Part shown: piece after piece, positions 9,102 to 31,956 of the stretch | Layout: each line of letters begins with the position of its first letter | Position numbering within the stretch: position 1 is the first letter of the stretch | Source of the DNA: a virus | Taxonomy: Duplodnaviria; Caudoviricetes | IMG/VR virus record: IMGVR_UViG_3300044641_001763 | Location: 1 to 57,078 of that record | Length of the DNA stretch: 57,078 nucleotides | Strand: one strand, 5' to 3' | Position numbers and translations under genes: made by a program | The notes under the pieces: model-generated | Seen by the model: the letters and a program-made list of their open reading frames with translations, nothing else | The model's database searches: none | Told to the model about the DNA's origin: nothing

Positions 9102-9110
9102 GGAAAGAGC

Positions 9111-16185: not shown

Positions 16186-17584
16186 TCTTGCCGAGCCTGA
16201 GGTCCAAGCAGCCCTGAAGGCGCTCCCGCCGGTCAAGCGGCTGGCAATGGCGTGGCGTCTGACGTGGCTGCATAAGGCGCTACCGCACCAGATAGTGCCG
16301 CATGGCGACTGGTGGTCGATCTGGCTGATGCTGGCCGGACGGGGAGCCGGGAAGACCAGGACCGCCGCGGAGCAGGTCGGCTGGTGGGCATGGGAGCACC
16401 CCGACACCCGCTGGCTGGTGGCTGCTCCGACCTCCGCGGACGTGCGGAGCACCTGCTTCGAGGGCGACTCGGGATTGGTCACAGTCATCCCTTCGCCACT
16501 CATAGCGGACTACAACAAGGCCTTGCACGAGTTGCGGCTAGTCAATGGGAGCCTGATCAAGGGGATCCCAGCGAGCGAGCCTGAGCGCTTCCGCGGTCCA
16601 CAGTTCCACGGCGGGTGGTGCGATGAGCTGGCCGCCTGGGAGTACCTGCAGGACGCCTGGGACATGATGCAGTTCGGGATGAGGCTAGGTAAGCGCACCC
16701 GCCTAATATGTACTACCACGCCGAAGCCGAAGGACTTGATCCTCGAGCTGATGGCCAGGGAAGGCGAGGATGTCGCACTGACGACCGCCTCGACCTACGC
16801 CAACCTTGAGAACTTGAGCGAGAACTTCAAGAAGCAGATCCTGGCCTACGAGGGCACGAAGCTCGGCAGGCAGGAGATCTACGCCGAGATCATCGACCCG
16901 GAGGAGGGCGGCATCGTCAAGCGCGACTGGTTCCGCTTGTGGCCTGCTGGCCGGGAGTTCCCGAAGTTCGAGTACATCATCCAGAGTTACGACTGCGCAT
17001 ACAGTGAGAAGACACAGAACGACCCGACCGCCTGCATCACGTTTGGGGTCTTCAAGCCGGTGGACGGGCCGATGTCGGTCATGGTGATCGACTCTTGGCA
17101 GGAGCACCTGCAGTACCCGGACCTTCGCCCGAAGGTGGTCGAGGAGTACCAGACGGTGTTTGGCGAGGGTAGGGAAAAGAAACGGGTGGATCTAATATTA
17201 GTAGAGGACAAAGCCGCGGGGATCAGCCTGATACAGGACTTGCAGCGTGCTCACCTGCCTGTACGGTCGTACAACCCCGGCAGGGCGGACAAGGTCCAGC
17301 GGCTGAACATCGTGGCCAACATCATCGCTCGAGGCCGGGTATGGATCCCTGAGAGCGACCGCAGGACGGGGTTCGTCAAGGACTGGGCGGAAGGGTTCGT
17401 CAGTCAGATATGCGCGTTCCCTGAGTCAACCCATGATGACCTAGTGGATGCCTGCACCCAGGCGCTGCGGTACTTGCGGGACGGCGGCTGGCTCGAGATT
17501 GATCCTCCGCCTGAAGACGACTGGGACGAGGACGATTATGTGGACAGCGGGAAGCAACGGAGAGTGAACCCCTATGCGGTATAA
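16172..17584 (+). CDS. terL: Terminase large subunit
   Basis: Walker A GRGAGKT, Walker B WCDE, TTTP, RNase H-like nuclease HDDLVDA. Confidence 0.96.
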   Translation: MSLADLAEPEVQAALKALPPVKRLAMAWRLTWLHKALPHQIVPHGDWWSIWLMLAGRGAGKTRTAAEQVGWWAWEHPDTRWLVAAPTSADVRSTCFEGDSGLVTVIPSPLIADYNKALHELRLVNGSLIKGIPASEPERFRGPQFHGGWCDELAAWEYLQDAWDMMQFGMRLGKRTRLICTTTPKPKDLILELMAREGEDVALTTASTYANLENLSENFKKQILAYEGTKLGRQEIYAEIIDPEEGGIVKRDWFRLWPAGREFPKFEYIIQSYDCAYSEKTQNDPTACITFGVFKPVDGPMSVMVIDSWQEHLQYPDLRPKVVEEYQTVFGEGREKKRVDLILVEDKAAGISLIQDLQRAHLPVRSYNPGRADKVQRLNIVANIIARGRVWIPESDRRTGFVKDWAEGFVSQICAFPESTHDDLVDACTQALRYLRDGGWLEIDPPPEDDWDEDDYVDSGKQRRVNPYAV

Positions 17585-17766: not shown

Positions 17767-19728
17767 ATGGCCTCGATGGAGATTGAGCCGCCCCCGCCAG
17801 AACTAAAGGCGTGGGATCCGACGCTTCGTCAGCGTGCGTCTTCCGGCCTGCAGTCTGCGTTTATGGGCATGGGCGCGGATCCGTACAAAGCCCGTCAGCG
17901 GGCGGACACGATCATGGGAGGCCCGAGCAGTAATTTGCCAATGGAAGTAGGGGTGATGGACATCATCGCGGGTAAGAGCCTGCCTGTCACCGCGTTGATG
18001 ACGCCTTTCTATGGCGAAGAGACTGGCCGCAGTATTAAGTCAGCGTCTGAGGCGGCAGACCGCGGTGACTACATTGGAGCCGGGGTTGAGGGTGGATTTG
18101 CAGCGCTGAATCTGCTCCCTGCCATATCTGGGATCACTGGCCTTGCAAGGCGGGTGCTCAGAAAGGCGGACGAGTTCAAACCAATGGCGGTGCCTGAGAC
18201 GCCGAAGATTACAGAGAGCGCATATGAAACAGCCCAAGAAGGACCGTTCTACCGAGTCAAGCCGCGAATTGCTCAAGAAGCTGGACCAGCGAATCGCGGA
18301 ATACGAGAAGAAGTATCAACCGAACCTGTCGGAGGACCAACTGGCGGCGATGTTCCGGGACCAGTACCGGTCGATGTCAAGGCGCTAGTTGCGCAGTCGA
18401 GCAACTTTGTTAGGCGGGCTGCTGATGACTATAGCGTGCGGGCGCTGGGCAAGCCGTATGAGTTGCCGCAGATGCCGAAGGCCTCGCTCGCCAAGCAGAG
18501 CGGCATAGGCCGCACCTTCGAGTTGGCCACGACCGAAGATCCAGCGTACAAGCGGGCGGTGTTCGAGGCGTATGGCCAGCGGTTCCCGGACGTGATTGAG
18601 GCGTCTGGTGCCAAGAACTATGACCAGTTGATGGAGGCTGCGTACCGGCAGATGGCCAAGGAGGCCAAGGACCAGTTCAAGTCCCTGCCGGTCAATATGT
18701 CGTTCTATCGAGCCGGAGAGGGCGCGTACCGAGACAGCCCCGAGATGCTGCAGGACGTGTTCAAGAACCGTCACCTGTATGTGTATCAGGGCGGAGAGCC
18801 GCACAACTTCTTGAACGTCATGGACCCTGAGACAGGTCTGACGGCCAACGAGATGTTCCGGGCGGTGCATGACTTCTACGGCCACGCCGTGCACGGCAAC
18901 CCGTTCGGGCCGAAGGGCGAGGAGATCGCCTACGGTGCGCACTCGCAGATGTTCTCGCCGCTTGCCAGGATGGCGATGCTAAGTGAGACGAGGGGGCAGA
19001 ACTCGTTCGTCAACTACACGCCACTGAACGCCGAGCTGATGCAGCGTATCAACAAGCTAAACGGCATCAAGTATGAGGCGCGTCGGGCCAAAGACGGGAA
19101 CTTAGTTGCGGCGATGGACGCAGACCTAAAGGAGGCTTGGGGCGGTTTCCAGTTCGCGCCAAACAAAGCGCTGCTGCTGCCGCCGGAGTTCCTGAACCCG
19201 CAGTTCACGGGCGGAGTGCCGAGTTACATTCAGCCGATTATCAGGCCTGATCCGAGCACGACCGCGTCGGCTAGGCTGACGCACTTCAGCCAGTCGCCTG
19301 AGCTAGATTTCCTCGATCCTAAGAGGTACGGGACTGGAATCAAGGGCGAAGAGATGGGACGGCTGCAGAGCACGACCAATCCGGTGATGGAGCGGGCCTA
19401 CGCGTACATAGGAGAGAACCCGCGGCCAGAACCTGGACTGGGGCCGTACCGGTATGGCGCTGAAAGCCAGGGGCTGTATGACGTGATGGCTGACCCGGTG
19501 AACCTGCGCACACTGGCGGCGGAGGCCAACAGGACGCCCTATACGTCGCCGTATAACAAGGGGCTGACTGATCCTGGCCAAACCATGACGGACATCGAGC
19601 GGATGGCTAGGGAGTACGGTTACGAGGGCTTGATGAACCCTCAGCAGAGAACGGCGATCATGTTCAACCCGACGCCGGTGCAGCGGTACCAGCGGGGCGG
19701 ATTGGCCGCAATCAAACGGAGAGTGTGA
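17767..19728 (+). CDS. Multidomain polyvalent-type protein: HDxxGH metal-binding domain plus possible ADP-ribosyltransferase-like C-terminus
   Basis: FRAVHDFYGH...GEE...H...ETRGQNS; LTHFS...AY-x-Y...YGYEG; ends YQRGGLA. Confidence 0.55.
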   Translation: MASMEIEPPPPELKAWDPTLRQRASSGLQSAFMGMGADPYKARQRADTIMGGPSSNLPMEVGVMDIIAGKSLPVTALMTPFYGEETGRSIKSASEAADRGDYIGAGVEGGFAALNLLPAISGITGLARRVLRKADEFKPMAVPETPKITESAYETAQEGPFYRVKPRIAQEAGPANRGIREEVSTEPVGGPTGGDVPGPVPVDVKALVAQSSNFVRRAADDYSVRALGKPYELPQMPKASLAKQSGIGRTFELATTEDPAYKRAVFEAYGQRFPDVIEASGAKNYDQLMEAAYRQMAKEAKDQFKSLPVNMSFYRAGEGAYRDSPEMLQDVFKNRHLYVYQGGEPHNFLNVMDPETGLTANEMFRAVHDFYGHAVHGNPFGPKGEEIAYGAHSQMFSPLARMAMLSETRGQNSFVNYTPLNAELMQRINKLNGIKYEARRAKDGNLVAAMDADLKEAWGGFQFAPNKALLLPPEFLNPQFTGGVPSYIQPIIRPDPSTTASARLTHFSQSPELDFLDPKRYGTGIKGEEMGRLQSTTNPVMERAYAYIGENPRPEPGLGPYRYGAESQGLYDVMADPVNLRTLAAEANRTPYTSPYNKGLTDPGQTMTDIERMAREYGYEGLMNPQQRTAIMFNPTPVQRYQRGGLAAIKRRV

Positions 19729-21545
19729 TGCAAACCGAAGCAAGGCGTGAGCGCCTCAAAAAGATGCTTGGTGCTATGCCGACAGAACAGGCGATGCCTG
19801 AGCCGCAGATGGCCAGGGGTGGCAAGGTCAAGGACATTGTTAAGAGCGCTATAACCAGCGCGGCAGAGAAGGCGGGTATAAAGGCACCGGTGACGGCCAA
19901 CAAAGACCTGACGACCCTGCAAGACTTCCACACTTCGGTGATGGACCGGGTCCGCCAAGGCGCAGCCGAGACGCAGAACATGATCGAGTCGATGCCCTTC
20001 AAGTACGACAAGGGCCAGCGCGTGTTTACTGATGACAGCTTCAAAAAGAACAAGCCGCCCTACACGATTCTGGAGCGCACGCGCTTTGGCAATCAGGTGA
20101 TATACGACACCGGCGGCGGCATGAAACCCCGCAGAGATCCTGACACAGGTAAAGTCATGCGCACGCCCTACGAACCGGGCTATAAGGTGCGCCAAGGGGA
20201 CGGCGACGACTACATGGAGTTTGTCATTCCTGAGTCCGCAATCCGTGGCGACGTAGAGATGGCCAAGGGTGGTGCTGCAAAACAGAGAGTGGCGGAAACG
20301 CTAAGAGAAGTTGTTGAAGCCATCCGAGAAAAAGTTGGTCGGAACAAACCTAAAAAAGCGAAGGAAGACGATCATCCGTTAGTGTTTCCGCGAGCCGACC
20401 CAAAAAACAAGGAAGAGCTTCGCCCTATTGCGCAACGTATTGCGCAACAAATGACAAATGAGTTTGTCAGGCAAGATCCCAAGACAACAATGAATGTTGC
20501 AGGGAAGTCTAAAAAGCAGTGGCAACGCGAACAAAACATTCCCTTGGAAGTTAGGAATGTAGTGCCGCCAAAAGACGTGCCAAAAATTGATTACGAAAAG
20601 TATAAGGACTACGCGATTGTAGGTGTTCCAGGCGATCCGTCGCTTGGCGGAGTGTCGAGCAAAGGTTCCTTCGCACAAGCAGCGCGTCCCACTGTTGAAC
20701 TCACTCGTGTAGGCGACATCACGCCAGATTATCCTGTTCCTCTGTATGGAGGCCCAAGGTATGGCGATGAGGAAAGGTTTTGGGCATCAAACTATTCAGC
20801 AGCGCAGCCTGTTCAATCCAACGTTAATGAACTTGGAGCGCTGTACGAATCCCCTGTGTTGGGGCAGTACATCAAGATGGCCCCGGACTCTGCAAACTTT
20901 GCCTTGCATAATCTTGATTCATTGTTAGCAATTCAGCGCCCAGAGCAACTTAGCAAAGAGAAACGCGAGATCCTGAACGACTTGATTAGAAAGGGTTCAA
21001 AAAAGTATGGCCAGTTTCCTGGGTTTGCCGGAGTTGAAGACCCGGTAGATGTGCTGTTACAAGCTCAGATCAACTCAAAGTTGAGGAAGCACATTGCTGA
21101 GACGCTGACGAAGCCACAGATTACAGATGCTTTAGGTTTGCCTCTCGGTAAAGATGTTGTTGCAGCTATAACCCATCCGGAGCTGAGGAACCTAGAGACA
21201 GGAATTAGTGGCTTTTCTGTTGGGCAAATGACGCCCGGAGCTAAATTACAAAAGGGGTTGTCTGAACATCCAACGTATGACACAGACATTCCTGGCGCAT
21301 TAATCGGTCAAAGCAAATATCCTGTTCCTTATGAGATTGCGTTTCCGGACACTACGGCCTACGCTCGCAGTCAGCTCAAACCAGGGGTTCAAGAGTTTAA
21401 TATGATGAAATTGCTGGGGCCGAGAGAGCGAATTGATCAGCAGTACATCGACGAAATAAAGATGTTTGAAGAGCTAATGAAGCAATACACCGGAAAGAAG
21501 AAGGGCGGAGCCGTACAATCCGGTCTTTCTGCACTGCAAAGGTAA
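19725..21545 (+). CDS. Large hypothetical protein segmented by MAxGG motifs
   Basis: 606 aa; MARGGKV, MAKGGAA, KKKGGAV. Confidence 0.75.
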   Translation: MMQTEARRERLKKMLGAMPTEQAMPEPQMARGGKVKDIVKSAITSAAEKAGIKAPVTANKDLTTLQDFHTSVMDRVRQGAAETQNMIESMPFKYDKGQRVFTDDSFKKNKPPYTILERTRFGNQVIYDTGGGMKPRRDPDTGKVMRTPYEPGYKVRQGDGDDYMEFVIPESAIRGDVEMAKGGAAKQRVAETLREVVEAIREKVGRNKPKKAKEDDHPLVFPRADPKNKEELRPIAQRIAQQMTNEFVRQDPKTTMNVAGKSKKQWQREQNIPLEVRNVVPPKDVPKIDYEKYKDYAIVGVPGDPSLGGVSSKGSFAQAARPTVELTRVGDITPDYPVPLYGGPRYGDEERFWASNYSAAQPVQSNVNELGALYESPVLGQYIKMAPDSANFALHNLDSLLAIQRPEQLSKEKREILNDLIRKGSKKYGQFPGFAGVEDPVDVLLQAQINSKLRKHIAETLTKPQITDALGLPLGKDVVAAITHPELRNLETGISGFSVGQMTPGAKLQKGLSEHPTYDTDIPGALIGQSKYPVPYEIAFPDTTAYARSQLKPGVQEFNMMKLLGPRERIDQQYIDEIKMFEELMKQYTGKKKGGAVQSGLSALQR

Positions 21546-21551: not shown

Positions 21552-24110
21552 ATGGCCACACAGATGCCAATTGATCCCGAGTTCGGGAGGTTCGTGCAGG
21601 GCATACCGGACGATGCTTCTCCCGAGCAGCCGCCCGAGGAAGAAGTTGAAGTCGAGCTAACCGATGAAGACCTCGAGGAGTTGCCAGACGGGTCTGTAAG
21701 GGTACGGTTGGACACTGTTGGGCCAATGGAGTCCAAGGACTTTTACGAAAACCTCGCAGATACGGACATCCTAAGCTCCACCGAGCTGGCCACGATGGCG
21801 CTGCGGTTCTGCGAACTGGCAGACAAAGACAAAGAGGCCAGGAAGCAGCGCGATAAGCAGTACGAAGAGGGCATCAAGCGTACCGGACTGGGCAACGACG
21901 CTCCTGGAGGCGCGAACTTCCAGGGGGCGTCGAAGGTCGTCCACCCGGTAATGGCTGAAGCCTGCGTGGATTTTGCGGCTCGAGCGATCAAAGAGCTGTT
22001 CCCGCCAGATGGCCCAACCCGAACGAAGATCTTGGGTGACATCGATCAAGAAAAAGTAGCGATTGCCGAGCGCAAACGCGACTTTATGAACTGGCAGTTG
22101 ACCGAACAGATTGAGGAATTCGGTGACGAGCAGGAGCAGATGCTCACCCAGTTGCCGCTGGGCGGCTCTCAGTACCTGAAAATCTGGTACGACGAGAAGA
22201 AACGACGCCCTTGTGCGCAGTTTTTGCCCATTGACAACGTGCTGCTGCCGTTTGCGACCGCCAATTTCTACACGTCGCCGCGGGTAACCGAGGTTGACGA
22301 CATCTCCGAGTACGAATTCAAGACTCGGATCAGGTCCGGGCTGTATCGGGACACCAGTTATATCCGCGCCACGATGGATCCGGAGCCTACTGCAAGCCAG
22401 AAGGCCACGGACAAGATCGAGGGCAAGTCGCCCAACGAGAACGAGGACGGTTTGCGCCGGGTGTATCACATCTACACATGGCTCGAGCTGGAAGACGATC
22501 CTTATACGAAGGGAGAGTCGGCTCCGTACATCCTGATGATCGATGAAATCGACACTGAAGTGGTCGGTTTGTATCGAAACTGGGAAGACGGCGACAAGAC
22601 GATGACCAAACTCGACTGGATTGTCGAGTTCAAGTTTATCCCCTGGCGCGGAGCCTACGCTGTTGGTCTGCCGCACCTGATTGGAGGCCTTTCTGCGGCC
22701 CTTACAGGCGCTCTGCGGGCCTTGTTGGACTCTGCCCACATCAACAACGCTGCAACGCTGCTGAAGCTCAAGGGGGCCAAGGTATCGGGTCAATCGCAAC
22801 AGGTCGAAGTGACGCAGGTGGCCGAGATTGAGGCAGCTCCCGGCGTGGATGACGTGCGGAAGTTGGCCATGCCGATGCCGTTCAACCCGCCAAGTCCGGT
22901 GCTATTCCAGTTGTTGGGGTGGTTGACGAGTGCAGCCAAGGGTGTTGTGACGACTAGCGAGGAAAAGATCGCTGACGTTAACGCAAATGCCCCGGTTGGG
23001 ACGACGCAGGCGCTGATCGAGCAGGGTGCGGCGGTGTTTTCGTCAATTCATGCCCGGTTGCACAAGTCTCAAGCACGGATGTTGCGTATTTTGTCTCGGA
23101 TCAACCGTTGGTATCTGGATGATATGCAGCGTGCCGAGGTGGTTGAAGACCTTGACATCAAGCGAGAGGATTTTGCGCGGGTAACGGACGTAATTCCGGT
23201 GTCTGACCCGCACATTTTCTCGGAAACGCAGCGGATGGCTCAGACCCAGGCGGTCATGGCCATCATGAAAGACAATCCGGACCTGTTTAATCGTCGGGCA
23301 GTGATCCAGCGGTTCTTGAAGCAGATCAAAGTGCCGGGAATCAACGAACTGATGACGGATGTGCCGCCTCCGGCGAAGATGGACGCCGCTAACGAGAACG
23401 TGGCGATGTCAATTGGGCAGGCGGCGTTCGCATATCCGGAGCAGGATCACCTCGGACACATTCAGGCGCACTTGGACTTTGCGAAGAACCCGGTTTTGGG
23501 GTCGAACCCGTTCATTGCGCCAGGGTTCTTGCCGAAAGCCATCGAGCACATTAAGCAGCATCTGGTGTTGTGGTACCTGACTAGGATGAATGGCTACGTT
23601 CAGAAGGCGATGAACGCGAAGCTCGGCGAGTACGAGATGCTGGACGATCCGAAGGACGTGGATCGGCTATTTGCGCTTGCAAGCCAGCACGTTGACCTTG
23701 ATACTCAGCAGACCCTGCAGGGCATTATGCCGGTCATCCAGAAGATGATTCAGCAGCAACAGCAGTTCAAGCCGAAGCCTGACCTTACGCCGGATGGGCA
23801 AGTGTTGTTGCAGACGAGCATGGCAGAAACGCAGCGCAGGCAGCAGCGTGATCAGGCTGAGATGCAGCTCAAGGACAAGCAGGTTGCCGCGGAGATTGAG
23901 CGCGAGATGCAGAAGCTGCAGTTTGAGCAGCAGAAGGCAATGGAAGAGTTGCAGCTTAAACTTGCGATTGCAACGGGTGATATGGAGTTGAAAGAACGCA
24001 TCGAGACGGCGCGATTGACGCGTGATGCGGCGCACATTGTCAACGACAAGGAGCGTATCGTCTTGGATTATCAAACCAAACTTGGAGGTTCCGGTGGCTA
24101 CCAGCAATGA
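21552..24110 (+). CDS. Portal protein
   Basis: 852 aa after terminase; HPVMAEA, ELFPPDGP, PVGTTQALIEQG; coiled C-terminus. Confidence 0.88.
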   Translation: MATQMPIDPEFGRFVQGIPDDASPEQPPEEEVEVELTDEDLEELPDGSVRVRLDTVGPMESKDFYENLADTDILSSTELATMALRFCELADKDKEARKQRDKQYEEGIKRTGLGNDAPGGANFQGASKVVHPVMAEACVDFAARAIKELFPPDGPTRTKILGDIDQEKVAIAERKRDFMNWQLTEQIEEFGDEQEQMLTQLPLGGSQYLKIWYDEKKRRPCAQFLPIDNVLLPFATANFYTSPRVTEVDDISEYEFKTRIRSGLYRDTSYIRATMDPEPTASQKATDKIEGKSPNENEDGLRRVYHIYTWLELEDDPYTKGESAPYILMIDEIDTEVVGLYRNWEDGDKTMTKLDWIVEFKFIPWRGAYAVGLPHLIGGLSAALTGALRALLDSAHINNAATLLKLKGAKVSGQSQQVEVTQVAEIEAAPGVDDVRKLAMPMPFNPPSPVLFQLLGWLTSAAKGVVTTSEEKIADVNANAPVGTTQALIEQGAAVFSSIHARLHKSQARMLRILSRINRWYLDDMQRAEVVEDLDIKREDFARVTDVIPVSDPHIFSETQRMAQTQAVMAIMKDNPDLFNRRAVIQRFLKQIKVPGINELMTDVPPPAKMDAANENVAMSIGQAAFAYPEQDHLGHIQAHLDFAKNPVLGSNPFIAPGFLPKAIEHIKQHLVLWYLTRMNGYVQKAMNAKLGEYEMLDDPKDVDRLFALASQHVDLDTQQTLQGIMPVIQKMIQQQQQFKPKPDLTPDGQVLLQTSMAETQRRQQRDQAEMQLKDKQVAAEIEREMQKLQFEQQKAMEELQLKLAIATGDMELKERIETARLTRDAAHIVNDKERIVLDYQTKLGGSGGYQQ

Positions 24111-24237: not shown

Positions 24238-24423
24238 GTGAGGACGATTGGCGACCTTATAGGTCAAATTAAAGCGTCACAGGCTGAAATAGCCTTGTCC
24301 TTGGCGGCTGGGAATGCGCCTACATGGGACGCTTATCAAAGACTTGTCGGGAGGCATGAAGGGCTGCAAGATGCCTTGGACATTCTCGACAACCTAATGA
24401 AGGATGATGATGAACATGAATGA
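24238..24423 (+). CDS. Small helical head-module protein
   Basis: 61-aa ORF between portal and GroES. Confidence 0.7.
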   Translation: MRTIGDLIGQIKASQAEIALSLAAGNAPTWDAYQRLVGRHEGLQDALDILDNLMKDDDEHE

Positions 24424-24847
24424 ACCGGAAGCGGTGAACACTGCTGAATTGGCTTGGGCATTTCCGAGCGTAGACCCCGGTGCAAAACCTCTTGGTGGCC
24501 GTATTTTGGTGCAGTTGCGGCGTACTAAAAACAAGACGACAAGTGCCGGGATTATTTTGGTTGAAGAAACCAAAGAAACCGAAAAGTGGAACAACATGGT
24601 GGCAAAGGTCATCGAGATTGGTCCGTTGGCGTTCAAGCATCGAGACACGATGCAATCATGGCCGGAAGGCTCGTGGTGTAAAGCCGGGGACTATATCCGC
24701 GTACCCAAGTGGGGCGGAGATCGATGGGAAGTGAAAGTGCCTGGGGAACACGACAAGGAAGACCCTGCGCTGTTCATGATCCTGAACGACCATGAAGTGA
24801 TTGCCAAGGTAACTTGCGATCCGTTGGCCATGAGGGCATTTGTATGA
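24410..24847 (+). CDS. groES: GroES-like co-chaperonin
   Basis: KPLGGRILV, TSAGIIL, VIEIGP, GD-x-I-x-x-x-KWGG, ILNDHEVIA. Confidence 0.85.
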   Translation: MNMNEPEAVNTAELAWAFPSVDPGAKPLGGRILVQLRRTKNKTTSAGIILVEETKETEKWNNMVAKVIEIGPLAFKHRDTMQSWPEGSWCKAGDYIRVPKWGGDRWEVKVPGEHDKEDPALFMILNDHEVIAKVTCDPLAMRAFV

Positions 24848-25767
24848 ATACCGAACCGAAAGTCAAAGAAGAGTCGTTTGACGTTACGGAAGAGAAAGAC
24901 GGTTCCGTTGTCGTTGAACTGCCGGATAACATTGAATCGCCGGATCAACCTGAGCAACAGGCCGGTGATGATGAGGACCGTCCGGACGATACTGACGCAG
25001 TGCGTGCCGCACGAAGGGCGCGGCGTCGGGCAAAAAAAGAATATATTAAGCAAACTAACCAAGAGAAAGACCATCGATTGGTTCTGTTGACGAAGCAGAA
25101 CCAGGAGTTGATGGAACGGCTTTCTGCGGTTGAGCGGAAGACGCATTCTGCGGACTTAGCGCGACTTGACTCTGCTATTTCGGACGAAGAGAGTCGGTTG
25201 GAGTTTTTCAGGCGCAAGATGCAAGACGCGACTGATAATTCTGACGGGACTGCGTTTACAAAAGCGCAAGAGTCTTGGTACGAGTCGCGACGTAAAGTCG
25301 AAGCGATGCAGGGCATTAAGCAACGGGCGGTGCAGGCAACTAATAACGAGTCTGGCCCTGCTAATCCAAAGTTGGTTCGATTGGCGAATCAGTGGATGGA
25401 AAAAAACCCGTGGTATGACCCGAATGGTGGTGACGAAGATTCTCAAATTGCCAAAGTTGTAGACAATAAGTTGGCAGCAGAGGGTTGGGATCCAACGTCT
25501 GATGAATATTGGGACGAGTTTGATCGTCGCTTGCAGCAACGGCTTCCGAGTCGTTATACTGACGATCAGCATGAGCAACCAAGGAGAAGGCCTCGAAGTG
25601 TAGTGACTGGTTCTGGTAGGGAATCGCAGAATTCACGAGGAAACACTTTTGTTCTGGAACCTGAACAGGTTCGAGCGATGAAAGAAGCTGGTTTTTGGGA
25701 TGATCCATCAACTCGCAACCGAATGATCAAGCGGTACGCCGAACAAGCACGAAACAATAGGGGCTAA
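24844..25767 (+). CDS. Putative capsid scaffolding protein
   Basis: Acidic N-terminus, coiled coil, position upstream of capsid. Confidence 0.7.
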   Translation: MNTEPKVKEESFDVTEEKDGSVVVELPDNIESPDQPEQQAGDDEDRPDDTDAVRAARRARRRAKKEYIKQTNQEKDHRLVLLTKQNQELMERLSAVERKTHSADLARLDSAISDEESRLEFFRRKMQDATDNSDGTAFTKAQESWYESRRKVEAMQGIKQRAVQATNNESGPANPKLVRLANQWMEKNPWYDPNGGDEDSQIAKVVDNKLAAEGWDPTSDEYWDEFDRRLQQRLPSRYTDDQHEQPRRRPRSVVTGSGRESQNSRGNTFVLEPEQVRAMKEAGFWDDPSTRNRMIKRYAEQARNNRG

Positions 25768-25769
25768 TC

Positions 25770-26306
25770 ATGGATTCTCGTCTGAAGAAATCTCTCTCTG
25801 CCGGTGGACGCGAAACTCGCGCCAGTGAGGACGCCAACCGGTCTGCACCTGAAGAAAAGTTCGTTTCATCGCAGGAACGTCGCAAGATGTGGAGTGATGA
25901 GTGGACACAGAGTGCGCTGCCAAAGTTGCCCGATCTTCCGGGCTGGCACCTTTGCTGGTTATCAACGACCAACAGCTACGACAGTATTGATAAGCGAATT
26001 CGGCTCGGCTATGTGCCTGTAACTCAGGACGAGATGCGCGGGTTTGAAAATTATCGCGTAAAAGCTGGAGAGCACGCTGGTTATATCGCCTGCAACGAAA
26101 TGCTCCTGTTCAAGATTCCAATTGATATGTACCAGGACATTATGTTGCAGATGCACCACGAGAAGCCGATGGAGGAGGCGGAAAAGATCCGCGTCCAACT
26201 CGAGAGTTTGCAGGGTGCGCGAGACTCGTCAGGTAAACACCTGGGGAGAGTTGAAGGCGAGGGCTTTGGTGATATGGACCGTCACGTTCCGGTTCCAATT
26301 TTTTAG
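25770..26306 (+). CDS. Conserved head-module protein
   Basis: 178 aa; PGWHLCW...GYVPV. Confidence 0.7.
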   Translation: MDSRLKKSLSAGGRETRASEDANRSAPEEKFVSSQERRKMWSDEWTQSALPKLPDLPGWHLCWLSTTNSYDSIDKRIRLGYVPVTQDEMRGFENYRVKAGEHAGYIACNEMLLFKIPIDMYQDIMLQMHHEKPMEEAEKIRVQLESLQGARDSSGKHLGRVEGEGFGDMDRHVPVPIF

Positions 26307-26335: not shown

Positions 26336-26908
26336 ATGTCTGCGACTAATGCTCCGTTCGGTCTGCGCCCCGCGTTCCATCCAAGTGGTTTGGATCGCGC
26401 TCAGGCGCTGGCTGGCGGTATCGCGTCGGGATACAACACCGACATTCTCAAGGGCCAGCCCGTCAAGCTGGACACTAACGGCAACATCGTTGTTGCGGCG
26501 GCAGGTGATGCGTTCCAAGGTGCCTTTGCGGGCGTCGAGTTTACGGACACTACCGGTCGTCGTCGCGTCTCGAACAACTGGCCTGCCAACACGGCATACC
26601 AGACCGGTTCTTGCGTAGCGTATTTCTATAACGATCCCAACATCGTTTATGAAATTCAAGCTGCGGGTTCGTTGCTGCAAACCTCGATTGGCGACATGGC
26701 TGATTTGAGCAACACTACTGCTGGTTCGACGGTCACTGGTCTGTCGCAATGCACACTGTCAACCTCGTTGGTGGGTGGTGGCAACAGCGCTCAGATGCTG
26801 ATTCGCGATCTGGCTCCGTACCCTGATAACGATTGGGGAGATGCGTACACGATTGTGCGCGTAACGATCAACGAGTCGCAGTTCAATGCGTCCGTGAACG
26901 CCATTTAA
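26336..26908 (+). CDS. Capsid decoration/cement protein
   Basis: APFGLRP start, beta-rich, immediately before the capsid gene. Confidence 0.65.
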   Translation: MSATNAPFGLRPAFHPSGLDRAQALAGGIASGYNTDILKGQPVKLDTNGNIVVAAAGDAFQGAFAGVEFTDTTGRRRVSNNWPANTAYQTGSCVAYFYNDPNIVYEIQAAGSLLQTSIGDMADLSNTTAGSTVTGLSQCTLSTSLVGGGNSAQMLIRDLAPYPDNDWGDAYTIVRVTINESQFNASVNAI

Positions 26909-26920: not shown

Positions 26921-27835
26921 ATGGCCGCTCCAATGCGTAGTACCGACTTTCGGTCAATTGTTGAACCGATCCTTAATGAATGTTTTGATGGTGTTTACGA
27001 CCAGCGAGCTGACGAGTGGAGCCGAGTGTTCCGCGAGCAGCAGGGCATTCCCCGCAATTATCACGAAGAACCTGTCCTGTACGGTTTTGGCGCAGCGCCT
27101 GAGCTGGCTGACGGCACCCCGGTGACGTATCAGCAGGGTGGCGTACTGTTCCTGAAGCGCTATGTGTACAAGGTGTATGGCCTTGCCTTCGCCCTGACCA
27201 AAGTGTTGACGGAAGACGGCGACCACATCCGTATTGGTTCGGTTTACGCTCGCCATCTGGCGCAGTCGCTCATTGAAACCAAAGAGACGCTTGCCGCGAA
27301 CGTGCTTAACCGCGCATTCAACGCTTCGTATCCTGGCGGTGACGGTGTGGCGCTGAACAGCAATGCGCATCCGATTGTCAACGGCACGTTCAGCAACTTG
27401 CTGACGACCGCGGCAAATCTGTCGCAGACCTCGCTCGAGCAGATGCTGATCCAGATCCGTCAGGCTGTTGACAACAACGGCAAGAAGATCCGTTTGGTTC
27501 CGCGTCAGCTTGTTGTGGCTCCAGGCAACGTCTTCCAGGCTGAAGTGCTGCTGAAGAGCGTGTTGCGTGCTGGCGTGGCTAACAACGACATCAACCCGAT
27601 CAAGTCGATTGGCTTGCTCGATGAGGGTGCCGCGGTTATCTCGCGTCTGACCAGTGCGACTGCTTTTTGGGTTCAGACTGACGCGCCTGAAGGCATGAAG
27701 CTGATGATGCGTCGTGGTCTGGAAAAGACGATGGAAGGTGACTTTGAAACCGACTCCATGCGGTACAAAGCGACCGAGCGTTATGACCTCGGCTTCACTG
27801 ACCCGCGTGCGATGTACGGCACTCCTGGTGTTTAA
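26921..27835 (+). CDS. Major capsid protein (Mu gpT-like, HK97 fold)
   Basis: 304 aa; GDGVAL...HP, LVVAP, NNDINP, RYDLGFTDPR; biased codons. Confidence 0.9.
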   Translation: MAAPMRSTDFRSIVEPILNECFDGVYDQRADEWSRVFREQQGIPRNYHEEPVLYGFGAAPELADGTPVTYQQGGVLFLKRYVYKVYGLAFALTKVLTEDGDHIRIGSVYARHLAQSLIETKETLAANVLNRAFNASYPGGDGVALNSNAHPIVNGTFSNLLTTAANLSQTSLEQMLIQIRQAVDNNGKKIRLVPRQLVVAPGNVFQAEVLLKSVLRAGVANNDINPIKSIGLLDEGAAVISRLTSATAFWVQTDAPEGMKLMMRRGLEKTMEGDFETDSMRYKATERYDLGFTDPRAMYGTPGV

Positions 27836-27858: not shown

Positions 27859-28887
27859 ATGGCCCTCACTAATTTCCCGAATGGGATCACTAGTTTCGGG
27901 GTGCCTGTTCTCGGAACCATCGGCGGCTTGCCGTTTACTGGAAACTACTATTTTGTAGATCCATTGAACGGCGCTGATGGTAACGATGGCACGCCTGAAC
28001 TGCCGCTCAAAACGTTGTACGGCGCTTTGGCTAAATGTACTGCTGGCAACAACGATGTGGTTCTTCTGATGGGCGATGGTACTTCGGCGGGTTCTGCCCG
28101 TCTGAGTACGGCGCTTGCTCAGGAAATTAATTCGTCTGCGACCAACGGTACGCTGAACTGGAACAAGAACGCCACTCACTTGATTGGTGTTTGCGCTCCG
28201 ACTTCAGTAGCTCAACGAGCGCGTATTGCTCCGCCAGCGGGCACCTATACTGCCGCGACTTTCAACGCAACCACGTTTATCAACGTGACTGCGTCGGGGT
28301 GTTACTTTGCGAACCTGTCTGTATTCTGCGGGTTTAGCACGGGTAATGCTGCGATGATTGCGTGGCAGGACAGTGGTAGTCGGAATGCGTACTCGAACGT
28401 CAACATCTTCGGCATGGCGGATGCAGCGTCTGCTGGAGGCGCGAACGCTCGGACGCTGAAGCTGCTTGGCGGTGGTGAGAACACGTTCATCAACTGCACC
28501 TTGGGCGGTGATACGGTGGCACGAAGCGCAGCAAATGCTACTGTCGAGCTGGCTAACGGAACAGCGCGGAACTCGTTCATTGACTGCGTTTTCCCCTTCC
28601 AGGCTTCCGCTGCAACGCCCGTTGGTCTTCGGGTTACGCAGGGAGGCATGGATCGGTACGCGCTGTTCAAGGGGTGTACGTTCATCAACAACGTGGGTTC
28701 TACTTCAACCACGCTATCGGCGTTTGCAACGATTGCAACGTCGTCTGGCGGGCAGGTTGTTGTTGCAAACACGATGATGGTCGGCATTACCGAGTTCGGT
28801 TCTGATGCTGCGTCACTGGGTCAGATTTACGTTGATATGGCCGCGCCGTCTGCAAGCGCTGGCGGTATCGCCGTGAATCCGTCCTAA
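27859..28887 (+). CDS. Head fibre/spike with beta-helix (pectin lyase-like) fold
   Basis: TNFPNG start; YFVDP..GADGNDG...PLKTL; repeated F-x-x-C-T-F. Confidence 0.6.
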   Translation: MALTNFPNGITSFGVPVLGTIGGLPFTGNYYFVDPLNGADGNDGTPELPLKTLYGALAKCTAGNNDVVLLMGDGTSAGSARLSTALAQEINSSATNGTLNWNKNATHLIGVCAPTSVAQRARIAPPAGTYTAATFNATTFINVTASGCYFANLSVFCGFSTGNAAMIAWQDSGSRNAYSNVNIFGMADAASAGGANARTLKLLGGGENTFINCTLGGDTVARSAANATVELANGTARNSFIDCVFPFQASAATPVGLRVTQGGMDRYALFKGCTFINNVGSTSTTLSAFATIATSSGGQVVVANTMMVGITEFGSDAASLGQIYVDMAAPSASAGGIAVNPS

Positions 28888-28892
28888 ATTTA

Positions 28893-28908
28893 CGGGGGGA
28901 AACCCCCG
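28893..28908 (+). terminator. GC hairpin with GAAA tetraloop
   Basis: cggggg-gaaa-cccccg between genes. Confidence 0.45.
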
Positions 28909-28923
28909 ATAAAGGAGTGTGAC

Positions 28924-30042
28924 ATGGGTCAGTTTAAGCCGATGGTGAAGATGAAAACCACGGAGCCGTCTATTGAGCTGAAGCTCAAAAAAGGCGGTAA
29001 GGTGGAGAAGAAGATGCAGATGGGCGGGGATCCAGGCATGGCCCCTCCCGCTGCAATGCCTGCTGCGATGCCTGCACGAGGCGGCATGATGGGTGCGGGA
29101 GCGCCTATGAAGCCGTCTATGGCCTCTCGTCGTCGTGCGATGCGTGCGATGCCTTCTGGTGCCGGTCCTGCGGCTCCTGTGGGCATGGCGGGTCGCATGA
29201 TGAAAGAGGGCGGGGAAAGTACAGCGTTGCAAGAACACGCTGACAAACCTGCTAGCAAGGCTCACAAAGGTCTGAAGACTGGTGGTGTGGTGATGGGTCA
29301 AGCCGGATACAAACACGGCGGGGTCATCAACACTGAAGGCCAGGGTGGCAAGTACCGTAACACCAAGATGGACACTGCGAAGCCTGATCATTCCTCGGCA
29401 AAAACCGGTGGTGTGAAGATGGGCAAGCCTGGAGGGTATGCCACGGGAGGCGTTGCGAAGAGCAATGCTGGTGGCTACAAGAAGGGCGGTGTAGCCAAGA
29501 TGATGGGTGGCGGCATGGCTTACATGGAAGGTGGTGCCGCAAAAAAGGCTTTCGCGGCGGGGGGAGTTGTTGATAGCGGTGCCCCCGTCGCGATGCCTCA
29601 AGGCCGCAAAAAACCTAGTGCTCCTGTATCAATCAACGCATCGTCTGGCACCTTCAAGAAAGGCGGCAGCGTAACTGCTGCTGAAGGCCGCTTGCAAAAG
29701 AACTTTAAGAAAGAAAACGCCCCGGCTATGAAAGCAGCCAAAGCGGATTCAAATGAGGTTTACAGCAAGTACGGCAAGAAGATGAAAGACGGCGGCGTTC
29801 CGTCAGCGGTTCGTGACCAGAGGCAGACTGAAGAAAATCAGCGGGCCTATGCAAACTGGGAACGATCGCAGACGCAAGAGAACGAAGCCATGAGGAACGC
29901 CATTACGGGTTTCCCGCGTAAAGTGATGAGGGGCATCAAGGGGTTGTTTTCGTCAAACGCGCCGAAGGGCAGCGTGACTGAAACCGAGAAGTCGGTGACA
30001 GTGACGCCAGCCAAGAAGCGCGGAGGCGCGGTTACTTGTTAA
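28924..30042 (+). CDS. Basic low-complexity protein with about 14 xxxGG repeats
   Basis: LKKGG, MQMGG, MKEGG, LKTGG, YKHGG, AKTGG, YATGG, YKKGG, MMGGG, YMEGG, FAAGG, FKKGG, MKDGG, KKRGG. Confidence 0.8.
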   Translation: MGQFKPMVKMKTTEPSIELKLKKGGKVEKKMQMGGDPGMAPPAAMPAAMPARGGMMGAGAPMKPSMASRRRAMRAMPSGAGPAAPVGMAGRMMKEGGESTALQEHADKPASKAHKGLKTGGVVMGQAGYKHGGVINTEGQGGKYRNTKMDTAKPDHSSAKTGGVKMGKPGGYATGGVAKSNAGGYKKGGVAKMMGGGMAYMEGGAAKKAFAAGGVVDSGAPVAMPQGRKKPSAPVSINASSGTFKKGGSVTAAEGRLQKNFKKENAPAMKAAKADSNEVYSKYGKKMKDGGVPSAVRDQRQTEENQRAYANWERSQTQENEAMRNAITGFPRKVMRGIKGLFSSNAPKGSVTETEKSVTVTPAKKRGGAVTC

Positions 30043-30045: not shown

Positions 30046-30070
30046 AGCGGGGGCTTCGGCCCCTGCTTTT
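30046..30070 (+). terminator. Intrinsic terminator ending the capsid operon
   Basis: agcgggggc-ttcg-gcccctgct followed by TTT. Confidence 0.85.
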
Positions 30071-30084
30071 GATTGGAGAGATAA

Positions 30085-30368: not shown

Positions 30369-30893
30369 ATGCCAAGCAAATCATTAGCCCAGCATCGTTT
30401 GATGCAAGCCGCCGCTCACACCAAGGGCGGCTTTGGTGGTGTGCCTCAAAAGGTCGGCAAAGAGTTTGTCAAGGCCGACAAAAAAATGAACGACGGCGGA
30501 GTCGCTCAATCCTTGAAAAAGGCGGGCTTCTACGAGCCTTCCAAAAACCAGTCTGAGCGGGAGGCCATCGTCAACAAAGTCACGACCAAACCGCAACGAT
30601 TAAAAATAGTTGAGAAGTTGTTTGCTGACAAAAAGTTGAAAAGCGGCGGTAGTGTGTCACTTGCTGTTGGTCGCGGTGAAAAGTTGCCTGTTGAGAAAGG
30701 TGCTGGTCTTACAGCCAAGGGCCGAGCAAAATACAATGCGGCAACGGGGAGCAACTTAAAGGCACCACAGCCTCAAGGCGGCGCACGCAAGGATTCGTTT
30801 TGCGCCAGAATGTCGGGTATGCCCGGACCAATGAAAGACGAAAAGGGCAAGCCAACGCGCAAGGCAGCGGCCTTAAACAGATGGAAGTGCTGA
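30369..30893 (+). CDS. Basic composite protein with three segments joined at xxxGG motifs; C-terminal SFCARM domain
   Basis: MPSKS..Q..LM..AAH / MNDGG / LKSGG / RKDSFCARMSG...WKC. Confidence 0.7.
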   Translation: MPSKSLAQHRLMQAAAHTKGGFGGVPQKVGKEFVKADKKMNDGGVAQSLKKAGFYEPSKNQSEREAIVNKVTTKPQRLKIVEKLFADKKLKSGGSVSLAVGRGEKLPVEKGAGLTAKGRAKYNAATGSNLKAPQPQGGARKDSFCARMSGMPGPMKDEKGKPTRKAAALNRWKC

Positions 30894-30894: not shown

Positions 30895-31956
30895 ATGGCC
30901 TACTCGGGAACTGTCGGAACAACTGTCATTCAAGTCCAGACTCTGATTGATCACGGTGCGCGTCGTGCTGGCAAACTCGCAGAAGAGCTGACTTCTGAGC
31001 AGGTATTGAGTGCTAGGGAGTCGCTTTTTTTTCTGTTGTCGAACCTGATCAATATTGGCATTCAGTATTGGGCAATCGACAAAAAGATCTATGGGTTGAA
31101 TGCTGATCAGTACGTCTACAAGCTGCCTGTTGGCGGCAACGACGTGTTGCAGGCCTTGTATCGGCGCATGAACAGGCCTTCTGGGTCGTATGAAACGACT
31201 GCTGGCGGCATCGTTGAAAACGCGTTTGACTCAAATATAGACACAATTTGCACCCAATCAGCTCCGAATGGGTCTATATCCGTCAATTACGGGGCCAATA
31301 ATCCGGTTTATATTGGTTCAATTGGCATTTTGCCGGGTGTAACAGGCAGTATTGACTACATTTTGGAGTATTCCGAAGACGGGTTGTCGTGGAGTACGCT
31401 CTATGATCCCGGTGTTCAAGCCTGGGTGAACAACGAGTGGATTTGGCACGATGTGGAGCCGGGTCAAACGGTGCAGTTTTACCGGATTCGGGCTAGAAAT
31501 GGGTCTACGTTGTCGCTGCGAGAGCTGTATTTCGGGAACAATTCGACCGAAATCACGATGGCGCGGCTGAATCGTGATGACTACACCAACCTGCCAAACA
31601 AAAACTTTACTGCCAACCAACCCTTCCAGTATTGGTTCAATCGAACGATTCCCCAGGCGGAGATTACGCTTTGGCCGGTACCTTCGGACCCCTTTGTTCA
31701 GATGACAGTGTGGTACTCAAGGCAGATCATGGACGTGGGTGATCTGTACGGCGAGCTAGAGATCCCCCAGAGATGGTATTTGGCGGTTGTTAATATGCTG
31801 GCGCATCAAATGGCGCTCGAGCTTCCCGGAGTTGCTACGGATCGCATCAGTTACCTTGAGGGGCAGGCGGACAAGTACCTGACGCTTGCTGAAGTTGAAG
31901 AACGAGACAAGTCTCCAATCTACTTTGCGCCAAACATCAGCGTCTATACGAGGTAA
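30895..31956 (+). CDS. Head-tail adaptor-like protein with inserted discoidin (F5/8C)-like domain
   Basis: Helical N-terminus, LWPVP; central ENAFD...EYSEDG..W...FYRIR. Confidence 0.6.
   Translation: MAYSGTVGTTVIQVQTLIDHGARRAGKLAEELTSEQVLSARESLFFLLSNLINIGIQYWAIDKKIYGLNADQYVYKLPVGGNDVLQALYRRMNRPSGSYETTAGGIVENAFDSNIDTICTQSAPNGSISVNYGANNPVYIGSIGILPGVTGSIDYILEYSEDGLSWSTLYDPGVQAWVNNEWIWHDVEPGQTVQFYRIRARNGSTLSLRELYFGNNSTEITMARLNRDDYTNLPNKNFTANQPFQYWFNRTIPQAEITLWPVPSDPFVQMTVWYSRQIMDVGDLYGELEIPQRWYLAVVNMLAHQMALELPGVATDRISYLEGQADKYLTLAEVEERDKSPIYFAPNISVYTR

Follow-up and report, generated by a model that had tools for sequence, protein, structure and literature searches.

A conserved lysine-rich Gly-Gly-motif protein encoded last in the capsid transcription unit of uncultured freshwater phages, with a possible role inside the head

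The reading frame at positions 28924–30042 (+ strand; P0001) of the window, that is, of the whole 57,078-nucleotide stretch analysed, is a genuine gene under selection, as judged from its open frame, its conservation and its homologues. It encodes a basic protein of 372 aa carrying many Gly-Gly motifs, closes the capsid transcription unit and is fixed in a clade of abundant uncultured freshwater phages of about 57 kb. The explanation tentatively preferred here is that the product is an intact, disordered polycation that would reside within the head and bind the packaged DNA through many weak motifs; we infer its presence in the head, its binding to DNA and the absence of cleavage.

Composition and conservation

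The protein is rich in Gly (15.9%), Ala (13.7%), Lys (12.6%) and Met (7.8%), and with 64 Lys and Arg residues to 26 Asp and Glu it has a net charge of +38 and a pI of 10.27. It contains 19 overlapping Gly-Gly dipeptides, corresponding to 18 sites, compared with 9.3 ± 2.5 (maximum 19) in 5000 shuffles of the same sequence; K-x-G-G is found ten times against an expectation of 1.2 ± 1.05 (shuffle maximum 7). These counts agree with the sequence-only reading, made before this analysis, of a motif-studded protein of 372 aa rich in Lys, Met, Gly and Ala. The same reading overstated the case in describing it as built 'almost entirely' from such motifs, as residues ~250–345 contain one Gly-Gly site and are modelled as helices. 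Hypothetical cuts after each Gly-Gly would yield 19 pieces of 4–77 aa, 14 of them net positive, three neutral and two negative, which is close to the approximately 14 basic peptides with spacers of 6 to about 70 aa that had been suggested. An origin by tandem duplication was rejected on the TRF output, which consists of just two micro-repeats in the DNA of the gene (12 nt × 2.2 and 9 nt × 2.1), together with the failure of self-BLAST to find any internal repeat in the protein.

Alignments were made of 25 close homologues and of a wider set of 77 (46–94% identity). In both, indels comprise whole codons, adding or removing motif modules, and conservation is evident at the protein level. The residues of the Gly-Gly sites are 81% conserved, whereas residues outside them reach 48% and glycines outside them 50%, and 14 of the 18 sites are at least 88% conserved. 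The motif consensus is hydrophobic-(K/A)-(K/T)-G-G-x-(V/A): across 1,397 sites in the 77 homologues, P5 is hydrophobic (Y, M, L or F) in 61% and P4 is Lys in 44% or Ala in 23%, while after the first Gly of the motif, position +3 is Val or Ala in 47% and position +4 is Lys in 28%. Repeat number, which had been proposed as a check, does vary, with 13–25 Gly-Gly sites per homologue; this variation and the 18 sites of the present protein bear out the earlier suggestion of multivalency. All 77 homologues are polycations (net charge +22 to +54, pI 9.74–10.54), their basic residues being mainly Lys (median K/R ratio 3.4).

Genomic position and expression signals

The major capsid gene (26921–27835; Pfam Phage_capsid_4) is found upstream, with one gene in between. 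The order capsid gene, variable slot, 372-aa gene, variable slot, DUF6321 gene and adaptor gene is true of 80 related loci, as far as each locus extends. A Shine-Dalgarno sequence, AAGGAG, can be read at 28912–28917 (+), 6 nt before the ATG, and 69 of 76 related loci have a GGAG-like site within the last 16 nt upstream of the gene. The hairpin separating the preceding gene from this one (28889–28913, +; −14.3 kcal/mol) is not generally conserved, with one of −8 or lower present in only 23 of the 76. Directly 3' of the stop codon is an intrinsic-terminator-like hairpin with a T-tract (30046–30075, +), which starts 4 nt past the stop and comprises a 9-bp stem with seven GC pairs and a TTCG loop (30046–30067) followed by TTTTGATT. 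All 80 related loci have a hairpin of −14 kcal/mol or lower in the 45 nt past the stop, compared with 16% of random 45-mers, and compensatory changes are visible in the stems. This confirms the earlier placement of the gene as the last before the capsid-operon terminator, and the strong Shine-Dalgarno sequence and the terminator present in all 80 loci are read as signals of late, capsid-linked expression.

It is unlikely that the product is instead a late non-virion effector directed at the nucleoid, the ribosomes, the chaperonin or some other target in the host. Such a role would fit the accessory distribution of the gene, which is lacking in Caulobacter phage RW, Roseobacter phage CRP-901 and Pelagibacter phage HTVC027P, as well as the variable slots on both sides of it, the Met/Gly-rich stretches of the protein and the presence of the phage's own GroES-like gene at 24404–24847; some motif copies also resemble the core, GG followed by hydrophobic residues, of the mobile loop in co-chaperonins. 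However, the GroES-like gene does not co-vary with the 372-aa gene, being present also in relatives without it, so the two are not linked; the hydrophobic triplet after Gly-Gly is missing from most motif copies; and structural genes typically lie in such a position and end, as this gene does, at the terminator of the capsid genes.

Predicted structure and regions of the protein

An AF2 model built with the 77 sequences has a mean pLDDT of 56.8 and a pTM of 0.22, with 170 of 372 residues under 50. Residues 1–235 are given no fold and mostly fall below a pLDDT of 50; disorder is only partial, because the C-terminal third contains helices. The Atlas model has a pLDDT of 0.43, and a mean hydropathy of 0.426 against a boundary of 0.450 assigns the protein to the disordered class in a charge-hydropathy plot. 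The disorder originally proposed is thus predicted by all three approaches over the motif-rich two thirds. A fold search in BFVD returned a single match at E ≤ 0.001, which came from an uncultured phage, is uncharacterised and has a TM score of 0.09, the remaining matches resembling noise from disordered proteins. The matches listed by structure in the Atlas all had TM scores of 0.25 or less.

Several regions can be distinguished. Residues 1–25 (28924–28998, +), a candidate docking or targeting leader that ends in the first L-K-K-G-G, are the best-conserved continuous stretch, with 20 of 25 positions at least 90% conserved in the 77 sequences and a mean identity of 0.82 over residues 1–20; comparison of the N-terminal 30 residues with the other + strand ORFs of the genome gave no convincing match (best E 0.12). 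Residues 66–74 (29119–29145, +) are predicted to form a short Arg/Met-rich helix (AF2 block pLDDT 84), in which R69, A72 and M73 are at least 90% conserved across the same 77. The motif-dense disordered core, residues 94–250 (29203–29673, +; pLDDT mostly under 50), has 13 Gly-Gly sites, and the family has its only invariant columns here: G203, K208, A211, G219, G242, G247 and G248. The helical third, residues 252–342 (29677–29949, +), is modelled as helices 252–264, 267–280 and 294–342 with pLDDT up to 95, and is the least conserved sequence (identity 0.22–0.39). Residues 280–352 resemble residues 33–97 of a neighbouring basic protein of 174 aa (30369–30893, +) with a C-terminal DUF6321 domain (Pfam, 2.2e-22), at 30% identity over 76 columns (pairwise E 4e-4); this helix module is all that the two have in common, Pfam detecting no DUF6321 domain in the 372-aa protein. 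Finally, residues 349–372 (29968–30039, +), invariant in the 25 close homologues, comprise a conserved strand-like Ser/Thr/Val stretch, K-K-R-G-G and then 1–4 residues with a terminal Cys, the final residue being Cys in 54 of 77 homologues. A complex prediction for the capsid protein, the scaffold-like protein and residues 1–60, run without controls, gave no answer, with a score of 0.00 and a mark of 0.32, and counts neither for nor against binding.

The long, confidently predicted helix at 294–342 could be taken to favour an external head decoration, with the C-terminal helices anchored on the capsid and the basic arm sticking to anionic cell-surface polymers, and the gene does follow the capsid gene beside variable beta-rich genes resembling those of surface fibres or decorations. 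This is nevertheless very unlikely: the helical region, at 0.22–0.30 identity, is the part of the protein that is least conserved, an exposed unfolded Lys-rich arm of 235 residues would be protease-sensitive, and a decoration-type gene (26336–26908) already stands directly before the capsid gene. The product of that gene has a weak PHROG match to 'virion structural protein' (E 0.0096), and we presume it to be a decoration from its position before the capsid gene, after the fashion of lambda-type heads.

The multivalency, predicted disorder and varying motif number are also what might be expected of an assembly-phase glue clustering capsid protein, scaffold or DNA and absent from the mature virion, perhaps as a condensate formed through Lys/Tyr/Gly stickers and spacers. 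In agreement with this, the gene is co-transcribed with the capsid gene, and its product diverges at the pace of the scaffold-like protein, with identities of 42–79% and 41–76% respectively, as against 90–98% for the capsid protein. In one account of phage T4, a mutant in the internal protein IPIII is described as having its head assembly rate halved (PMC9026906), which counts for the same reading. We consider such a role unlikely, since a scaffold candidate is already present at 24844–25767, relatives with the same head module do without the protein, and a polycation loose in the cytoplasm would bind nucleic acids of every kind.

The Gly-Gly motif as a possible cleavage or targeting signal

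Adenovirus pVII and pre-mu are polycationic DNA-associated proteins with sites of hydrophobic-x-G-G type, which are cut by adenain; the consensus of this protease is (M/I/L)-x-G-G, cut and then x, with the hydrophobic residue at P4. The 372-aa protein is likewise polycationic, with Gly-Gly sites following a hydrophobic residue, and could be a polyprotein from which a protease, cutting after Gly-Gly, would free short, mostly cationic peptides in the head, the 25-residue N-terminus then being a removable targeting leader and the 1–4 residues past the last Gly-Gly a removable tail. In favour of such processing, Gly-Gly is the most conserved feature of the protein; specificity across the 1,397 sites is mainly N-terminal of it, with variable residues right after; the first Gly-Gly closes the conserved leader and the last is 4 residues from the end; and in other head-module proteins, as in the pre-portal pair described below, motifs sit at the termini of proteins and at a junction between domains.

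Despite these features, processing of this kind seems improbable to a marked degree, and the earlier idea of a precursor of short cationic peptides like those of pVII and mu is unsupported, because no peptidase family, from clan CE or otherwise, was found by Pfam in 64 ORFs (13 + 22 + 29) of the 57-kb genome at E ≤ 0.01 or 0.001, a scan that a protease of an unknown family would escape, and because the register is unlike that of adenovirus protease sites, the hydrophobic residue being at P5, one place further from Gly-Gly. PHROGs likewise gave no peptidase among the 35 larger ORFs, and neither database detected a prohead protease family. Furthermore, the preferences at positions +3 and +4 extend the motif past the supposed cut, five of the 19 fragments would be non-basic and several would be of only 4–8 aa. 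Unlike the adenovirus core proteins, this product is Lys-rich rather than Arg-rich, has no homology to them and belongs to a bacterial virus. Two candidates for a hidden protease were considered. A 178-aa head-module protein with conserved His and Cys is unlikely to be a Cys protease, as Cys62 and Cys108 are lost in the homologues from RW and HTVC027P; a PDB profile search with it gave 0 matches. The Pfam Metal_hydrol gene at 48134–48841 was rejected, its family being missing from MW202545.1, a record with a homologue of the 372-aa protein.

The motif recurs in other proteins of the head module. With both the pattern (hydrophobic-[KRAQ]-x-GG-x-[VAI]) and the region defined after looking, five copies were counted in the 4,270 aa of the stretch that runs from pre-portal genes to adaptor, where shuffling gave 0.4 ± 0.6 (0 of 1000 shuffles reaching five), compared with one copy, against 1.7 expected, in the remaining 12,377 aa of the genome. 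Two pre-portal proteins of 653 and 606 aa (17767–21545, +) have it both terminally and at one internal position, and in relatives the pair is one fused ORF that keeps the motif copies at the junction (4 loci). The DUF6321 neighbour has two copies. The 178-aa protein begins with L-K-K-x-L-x-A-G-G-R (25782–25811, +), which is conserved in 46 of 47 clade homologues and missing from those in RW and HTVC027P, phages also without the 372-aa protein. The motif is inconsistent in other carriers, just 17 of 56 DUF6321-like proteins having one strict copy, and the portal C-terminus was dropped as a carrier, being Gly-Gly-terminated in just 16 of 33 homologues.

It could be supposed, although the odds are judged to be low, that the motif is a portable signal of this clade, read by an unrecognised protease or procapsid dock and marking the ends and junctions of head-module proteins. 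The proteins so marked would be the pre-portal polyprotein, the 178-aa protein, the small basic proteins and the DUF6321 protein; the 372-aa protein would be a 12–14-valent array of the signal, serving as a polyprotein of cationic peptides or as a hub gathering tagged cargo. Such a system would be the equivalent, in a tailed phage, of the basic tags fenced by Gly-Gly in adenoviruses and giant viruses, but with no clan CE protease that can be recognised.

Comparison with other basic proteins

The preferred explanation, an intact polycation within the head, would place the protein in kind beside the basic proteins that T4 carries inside its head. According to a published account, T4 packs approximately 300 copies each of three such proteins, loaded into the prohead before the DNA by means of an N-terminal targeting sequence, ejected into the host with the DNA and dispensable on standard hosts (PMC9026906). 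Like IPI, IPII and IPIII, the 372-aa protein is basic, encoded in the head module (between the capsid and adaptor genes), equipped with a conserved N-terminal stretch and missing from some relatives. Unlike them, it is predicted to be unfolded and, having no PHROG or Pfam match, shows no sequence relation to them; it is far longer than these proteins of about 8–20 kDa, its leader is found in no other ORF of the genome whereas the T4 targeting sequence is common to several cargo proteins, and no prohead protease accompanies it.

Small basic proteins with basic-x-GG pieces near their ends are also found in a podovirus, T7, whose record links gp6.7 to morphogenesis and to injection into the host from the virion, and states that gp7.3 is needed for the infectivity of the virion and apparently for tail assembly. 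A 20-residue match to gp7.3 (50% identity, pairwise E 0.02) is at the level of the motif, and neither T7 protein has significant homology to the 372-aa protein; they are of 88–99 aa with one to three Gly-Gly pieces, compared with 372 aa and 18 sites, and their genes precede the portal gene rather than following the capsid gene. The motif further recalls the KGG repeat or hydrophilin family (PF10685, YciG/GsiB type), RGG boxes and the nucleic-acid-binding KH GXXG loops, which have in common a basic-Gly-Gly element in flexible hydrophilic sequence. Spacing and flanks differ, PF10685 was not matched by this protein or by 18 family members, and KGG, RGG-box and KH GXXG sequences belong to cellular stress or RNA-binding contexts, unlike the present protein.

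On the preferred explanation, a disordered polycation of ~38 kDa would be produced late, at the same time as the capsid protein, and most likely act intact. The N-terminal 25 residues, the conserved C-terminal strand or both may dock it into the assembling procapsid, where the 12–14 conserved hydrophobic-K-K-G-G-x-V motifs on a flexible Lys/Gly/Met-rich chain could contact the packaged DNA weakly at many points. Each motif would contribute a Lys that pairs with phosphate, a Gly-Gly that lets the backbone come close and a Tyr, Met, Leu or Phe as sticker, the outcome being neutralised charge and easier condensation; the protein may also exit the head with the DNA at infection. The argument for DNA binding is purely one of composition, and the presence elsewhere in the genome of likely ejection proteins, an SLT-domain protein (2543–4060) and a protein of 2468 aa (49308–56714), counts against this explanation.

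Distribution of the family

Among 8,000 scored metagenomic sequences, 4,897 homologues were found at E ≤ 1e-3, all unnamed and forming 400 clusters at 50% identity; the total of more than 4,800 is itself one of clusters at 90% identity. The gene is present in all 66 loci chosen through the capsid protein alone, each with at least 2.6 kb downstream. It is not needed for the capsid type as such, since RW and HTVC027P have the same head module without it. No homologue was found in a cultured phage of the GenBank phage set, the sole carrier being the metagenomic record MW202545.1. A tblastn search of 50,697 phage records with the whole protein gave no match, but it is blinded by the low-complexity filter, as MW202545.1 was missed despite its homologue; end pieces of the protein recovered this record alone (E 0.2). 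Of the MAG contigs of the clade, 7 of 11 are binned with Betaproteobacteria, binning being weak evidence of the host. A search for longer or fused forms gave four of 657–752 aa, all of them internal expansions without a known domain.

The protein had no match in Pfam, PHROGs or NCBIfam; in Pfam at E ≤ 0.01 there were 0 families both for it and for the 18 diverse family members, and a profile of the 77 sequences had 0 matches to PDB sequences at E ≤ 1. Catalogue-level literature searches found nothing on this family among disordered, basic or Gly-Gly phage head proteins, and no literature on DUF6321.

Conclusions

This large family is wholly unannotated, without a Pfam, PHROG or NCBIfam model. 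If its members are head-internal polycations, they would represent, for a podovirus-like phage, a clear case of protein-assisted neutralisation of DNA charge; they would also supply a naturally multivalent protein of short motifs that lends itself to experimental dissection. Should the motif serve targeting or processing, it could be used as a tag with which to load cargo into phage heads. Either outcome would provide a name and a model for thousands of hypothetical proteins.

Composition and conservation of the Gly-Gly-motif protein

The reading frame at 28924-30042 on the forward strand is open for 372 codons and encodes a basic protein (38.4 kDa, pI 10.27) rich in glycine (15.9%), alanine (13.7%), lysine (12.6%) and methionine (7.8%), with 64 lysine and arginine residues against 26 aspartate and glutamate. 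The 19 overlapping Gly-Gly (GG) dipeptides form 18 sites, compared with 9.3 ± 2.5 dipeptides in 5000 shuffles, while K-x-GG occurs ten times, compared with 1.2 ± 1.05 (shuffle maximum 7). Hypothetical cuts behind each GG would yield 19 pieces, 4-77 aa long and carrying net charges from -1 to +6, of which 14 are positive. Because of this composition, the excess of both motifs and the predominance of positive pieces, the sequence-only reading of a protein built from GG-delimited basic peptides can be regarded as accurate, except that residues ~250-345 contain a single GG site and that neither the gene's DNA nor the protein compared with itself shows tandem repetition. The motifs in this genome are instead scattered through unique sequence.

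The gene is real and selected, and belongs to a large family. At E ≤ 1e-3, 4,897 homologues were found among 8,000 scored proteins, and an exhaustive search of 50%-identity representatives returned 400 (92 at E ≤ 1e-30). The best 120 homologues are 49-93% identical and are all unnamed or 'hypothetical'. Apart from one uncharacterised phage protein, no relatives were found in Pfam, PHROGs, NCBIfam, PDB sequences or BFVD, and no known domains were detected in 18 diverse family members or four long forms.

In an alignment of 77 homologues (46-94% identical to the protein), conservation is 81% at GG residues, against 48% at all other residues and 50% at other glycines, and 14 of the 18 GG sites are at least 88% conserved. 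Each homologue has 13-25 GG sites; across 1,397 of them Y/M/L/F makes up 61% of position -3, position -2 is K (44%) or A (23%), and K/T/A at -1 precedes the two glycines, a variable residue, V/A (47%) and K (28%). Whole motif modules are gained or lost through indels; true tandem units of 11 residues occur in some relatives, and His-rich inserts in some. The N-terminal 25 residues are the best-conserved continuous stretch, invariant columns are confined to residues 203-248, and the C-terminal ~24 residues are kept among close relatives, a terminal Cys being present in 54 of the 77. All 77 are strongly basic (net charge +22 to +54, pI 9.74-10.54), with lysine exceeding arginine (median ratio 3.4).

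Genomic context and distribution

The window is a complete virus record of 57,078 bases, and genes run across its ends, as with a circular or permuted genome. The Gly-Gly-motif gene is located in a podovirus-like late region, in which the small and large terminase subunits (15565-17584) are followed by two large pre-portal proteins whose family is unknown (17767-19728 and 19725-21545), the portal (21552-24110), a GroES-like co-chaperonin (24404-24847), a 307-aa scaffold-like protein, a 178-aa protein (25770-26306), a 190-aa protein, the major capsid protein (Phage_capsid_4; 26921-27835) and a 342-aa protein that weakly matches tail fibres (27859-28887). Next comes the Gly-Gly-motif gene itself, and downstream of it are a 93-aa protein, a 174-aa DUF6321 protein (30369-30893), an adaptor-like protein and fibre-like proteins. 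The SU10 adaptor family is matched twice, strongly at 43851-44492 (2.1e-26) and weakly at 30895-31956 (4.3e-4). A 2,468-aa protein (49308-56714) and an SLT transglycosylase protein (2543-4060) probably serve as internal or ejection proteins. The early region (5939-9821 and 11001-11243) carries genes of lambdoid type: YdaS-like, DUF1376, Rap1a-like immunity, RusA, RecA-dependent nuclease and YuA gp49. The scans made of the window detected neither a DNA polymerase nor an integrase family.

The Gly-Gly-motif gene has a strong ribosome site (AAGGAG) and is followed, 4 nt past its stop, by a GC-rich hairpin (9-bp stem, TTCG loop) and a T-tract. Hairpins of ≤ -14 kcal/mol occupy this position in 80 of 80 related loci, compared with 16% of random 45-mers, and their stems exhibit compensatory changes. 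The hairpin upstream of the gene is found in just 23 of 76 loci.

Searching with the protein led to 80 IMG/VR loci, which share the order capsid, variable slot, Gly-Gly-motif gene, variable slot, DUF6321 and adaptor, with identities of 90-98% for the capsid protein and 42-79% for the Gly-Gly-motif protein. In relatives, the slot between capsid and Gly-Gly-motif genes holds alternative cassettes, including proteins of ~230 aa that begin T-R-F-P-N-G-V, Thr/Gly-rich proteins of 149 and ~420 aa, and HNH-like ORFs of 222 aa. To avoid circularity, a second set of 80 loci was drawn through the capsid protein alone, and the gene is present in every one of the 66 that extend 2.6 kb or more downstream. 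It is also found at the equivalent place in MW202545.1, a more distant metagenomic record, and is absent from Caulobacter phage RW, Roseobacter phage CRP-901 and Pelagibacter phage HTVC027P, despite RW and HTVC027P sharing the GroES-to-capsid module. The GroES-like co-chaperonin itself occurs in RW, HTVC027P and MW202545.1. With tblastn, which is nearly blind to this composition, the gene was found in no cultured phage of the GenBank set. Of 11 contigs in metagenome-assembled genomes with the gene, seven are binned as Betaproteobacteria or Burkholderiales, a weak indication of host.

The motif in other head-module proteins

Similar motifs are found in neighbouring genes. From the pre-portal genes through the adaptor (4,270 aa, excluding the Gly-Gly-motif protein), hydrophobic-[KRAQ]-x-GG-x-[VAI] occurs five times, against 0.4 ± 0.6 in shuffles, none of 1000 reaching five; the remaining 12,377 aa of the genome contain one, against 1.7 expected. 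This enrichment is only suggestive, because motif and region were both chosen after looking. Copies lie near one N-terminus, at one internal site and near both C-termini of the pre-portal pair, and are retained in four related loci where the pair is a single ORF, 1,229 aa or longer. For the first pre-portal protein the ESM Atlas gives a weak lead (score 0.80): a cluster with ART-PolyVal in 12% of members. L-K-K-x-L-x-A-G-G-R opens the 178-aa protein in 46 of 47 members of the clade, a start not present in the RW or HTVC027P versions; W-H-x-C, D71, D74, C-N-E-M and H129 are invariant within the clade, and Cys62 and Cys108 are replaced in these distant homologues. Basic 60-61-aa proteins in the slot behind the Gly-Gly-motif gene end in K-x-G-G, a few residues and C-W, and the protein preceding the adaptor in MW202545.1 ends F-K-K-G-G-K-V-N-W.

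The DUF6321 neighbour has two motif copies, and its residues 33-97 resemble residues 280-352 of the Gly-Gly-motif protein (30% identity, pairwise E 4e-4). DUF6321 proteins here and at 3022-3282 of comparison sequence L089 end in W-K-C; 142 phage records match the family, mainly cyanophages and pelagiphages, and in T7-like cyanophages the gene lies between scaffold and capsid genes, beside psbA. Several observations count against the motif being a strict 'tag': just 16 of 33 portal homologues have a GG end, just 17 of 56 DUF6321-like proteins have a strict copy, and pieces resembling the motif (G-G-R-[VI]) also occur in the pre-portal proteins of HTVC027P, which lacks the Gly-Gly-motif protein.

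Predicted structure and function

Over its motif-rich two thirds the protein does not appear to be a folded globule, the structure named in advance as contrary to the sequence-only reading. AlphaFold2, given the 77-row alignment, returned a mean pLDDT of 56.8 and pTM of 0.22, with 170 of 372 residues below 50, and predicted helices at 66-74, 237-240, 252-264, 267-280 and 294-342 (the last reaching pLDDT 95); for this sequence the ESM Atlas lists a model at pLDDT 0.43 and pTM 0.16. Charge-hydropathy also places the composition on the disordered side of the boundary.

The same reading proposed either a precursor of cationic core peptides, akin to adenovirus pVII/mu, or a multivalent disordered scaffold. 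This is partly supported: disorder, polycationic character and multivalency are borne out by the models, by charge in 77 of 77 homologues and by the 13-25 GG sites. Cleavage at the motifs would be in keeping with GG being the most conserved element, specificity lying mostly N-terminal to it, and motifs being located at protein ends and at a domain junction. It nevertheless seems quite unlikely, as searches of 64 ORFs against Pfam, and of the larger 35 against PHROGs, found no peptidase family, the motif continues past the putative cut, and its register is unlike the adenain consensus. A predicted metal-dependent hydrolase among the late genes (Metal_hydrol, 48134-48841; Pfam 3.1e-31) is absent from four related phage records; it was rejected as the protease since MW202545.1 has the Gly-Gly-motif protein without it. 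The 178-aa protein, with its clade-wide His and Cys residues, was also considered as a Cys protease but is judged unlikely to be one, given the replacement of Cys62 and Cys108 in RW and HTVC027P.

The likeliest of the mechanisms considered, proposed tentatively, is that the protein acts intact, as a disordered polycation inside the head. It would be made together with the capsid protein, and its conserved ends would dock it into the procapsid; its many weak Lys/Gly-Gly/hydrophobic motifs would then contact packaged DNA, with which it may be ejected. This would resemble the basic internal proteins of T4, which are described as present at ~300 copies each and as ejected after loading by means of a targeting sequence at the N-terminus; ordinary hosts do not require them, and loss of IPIII slows head assembly (PMC9026906). 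T7 gp6.7 and gp7.3 are likewise small, basic and GG-bearing, and the T7 record annotates them as injected from the virion and required for virion infectivity, respectively; their likeness is at the motif level only. Tests for homology, for a common leader and for a protease were all negative, and the protein is not a member of the T4 internal-protein or T7 gp6.7/gp7.3 families. A role as glue confined to the assembly phase is unlikely, and one as a late effector outside the virion similarly so; external decoration of the capsid is very doubtful. The observation itself is confirmed: these proteins constitute a large, unannotated and clade-defining phage family of unusual build.
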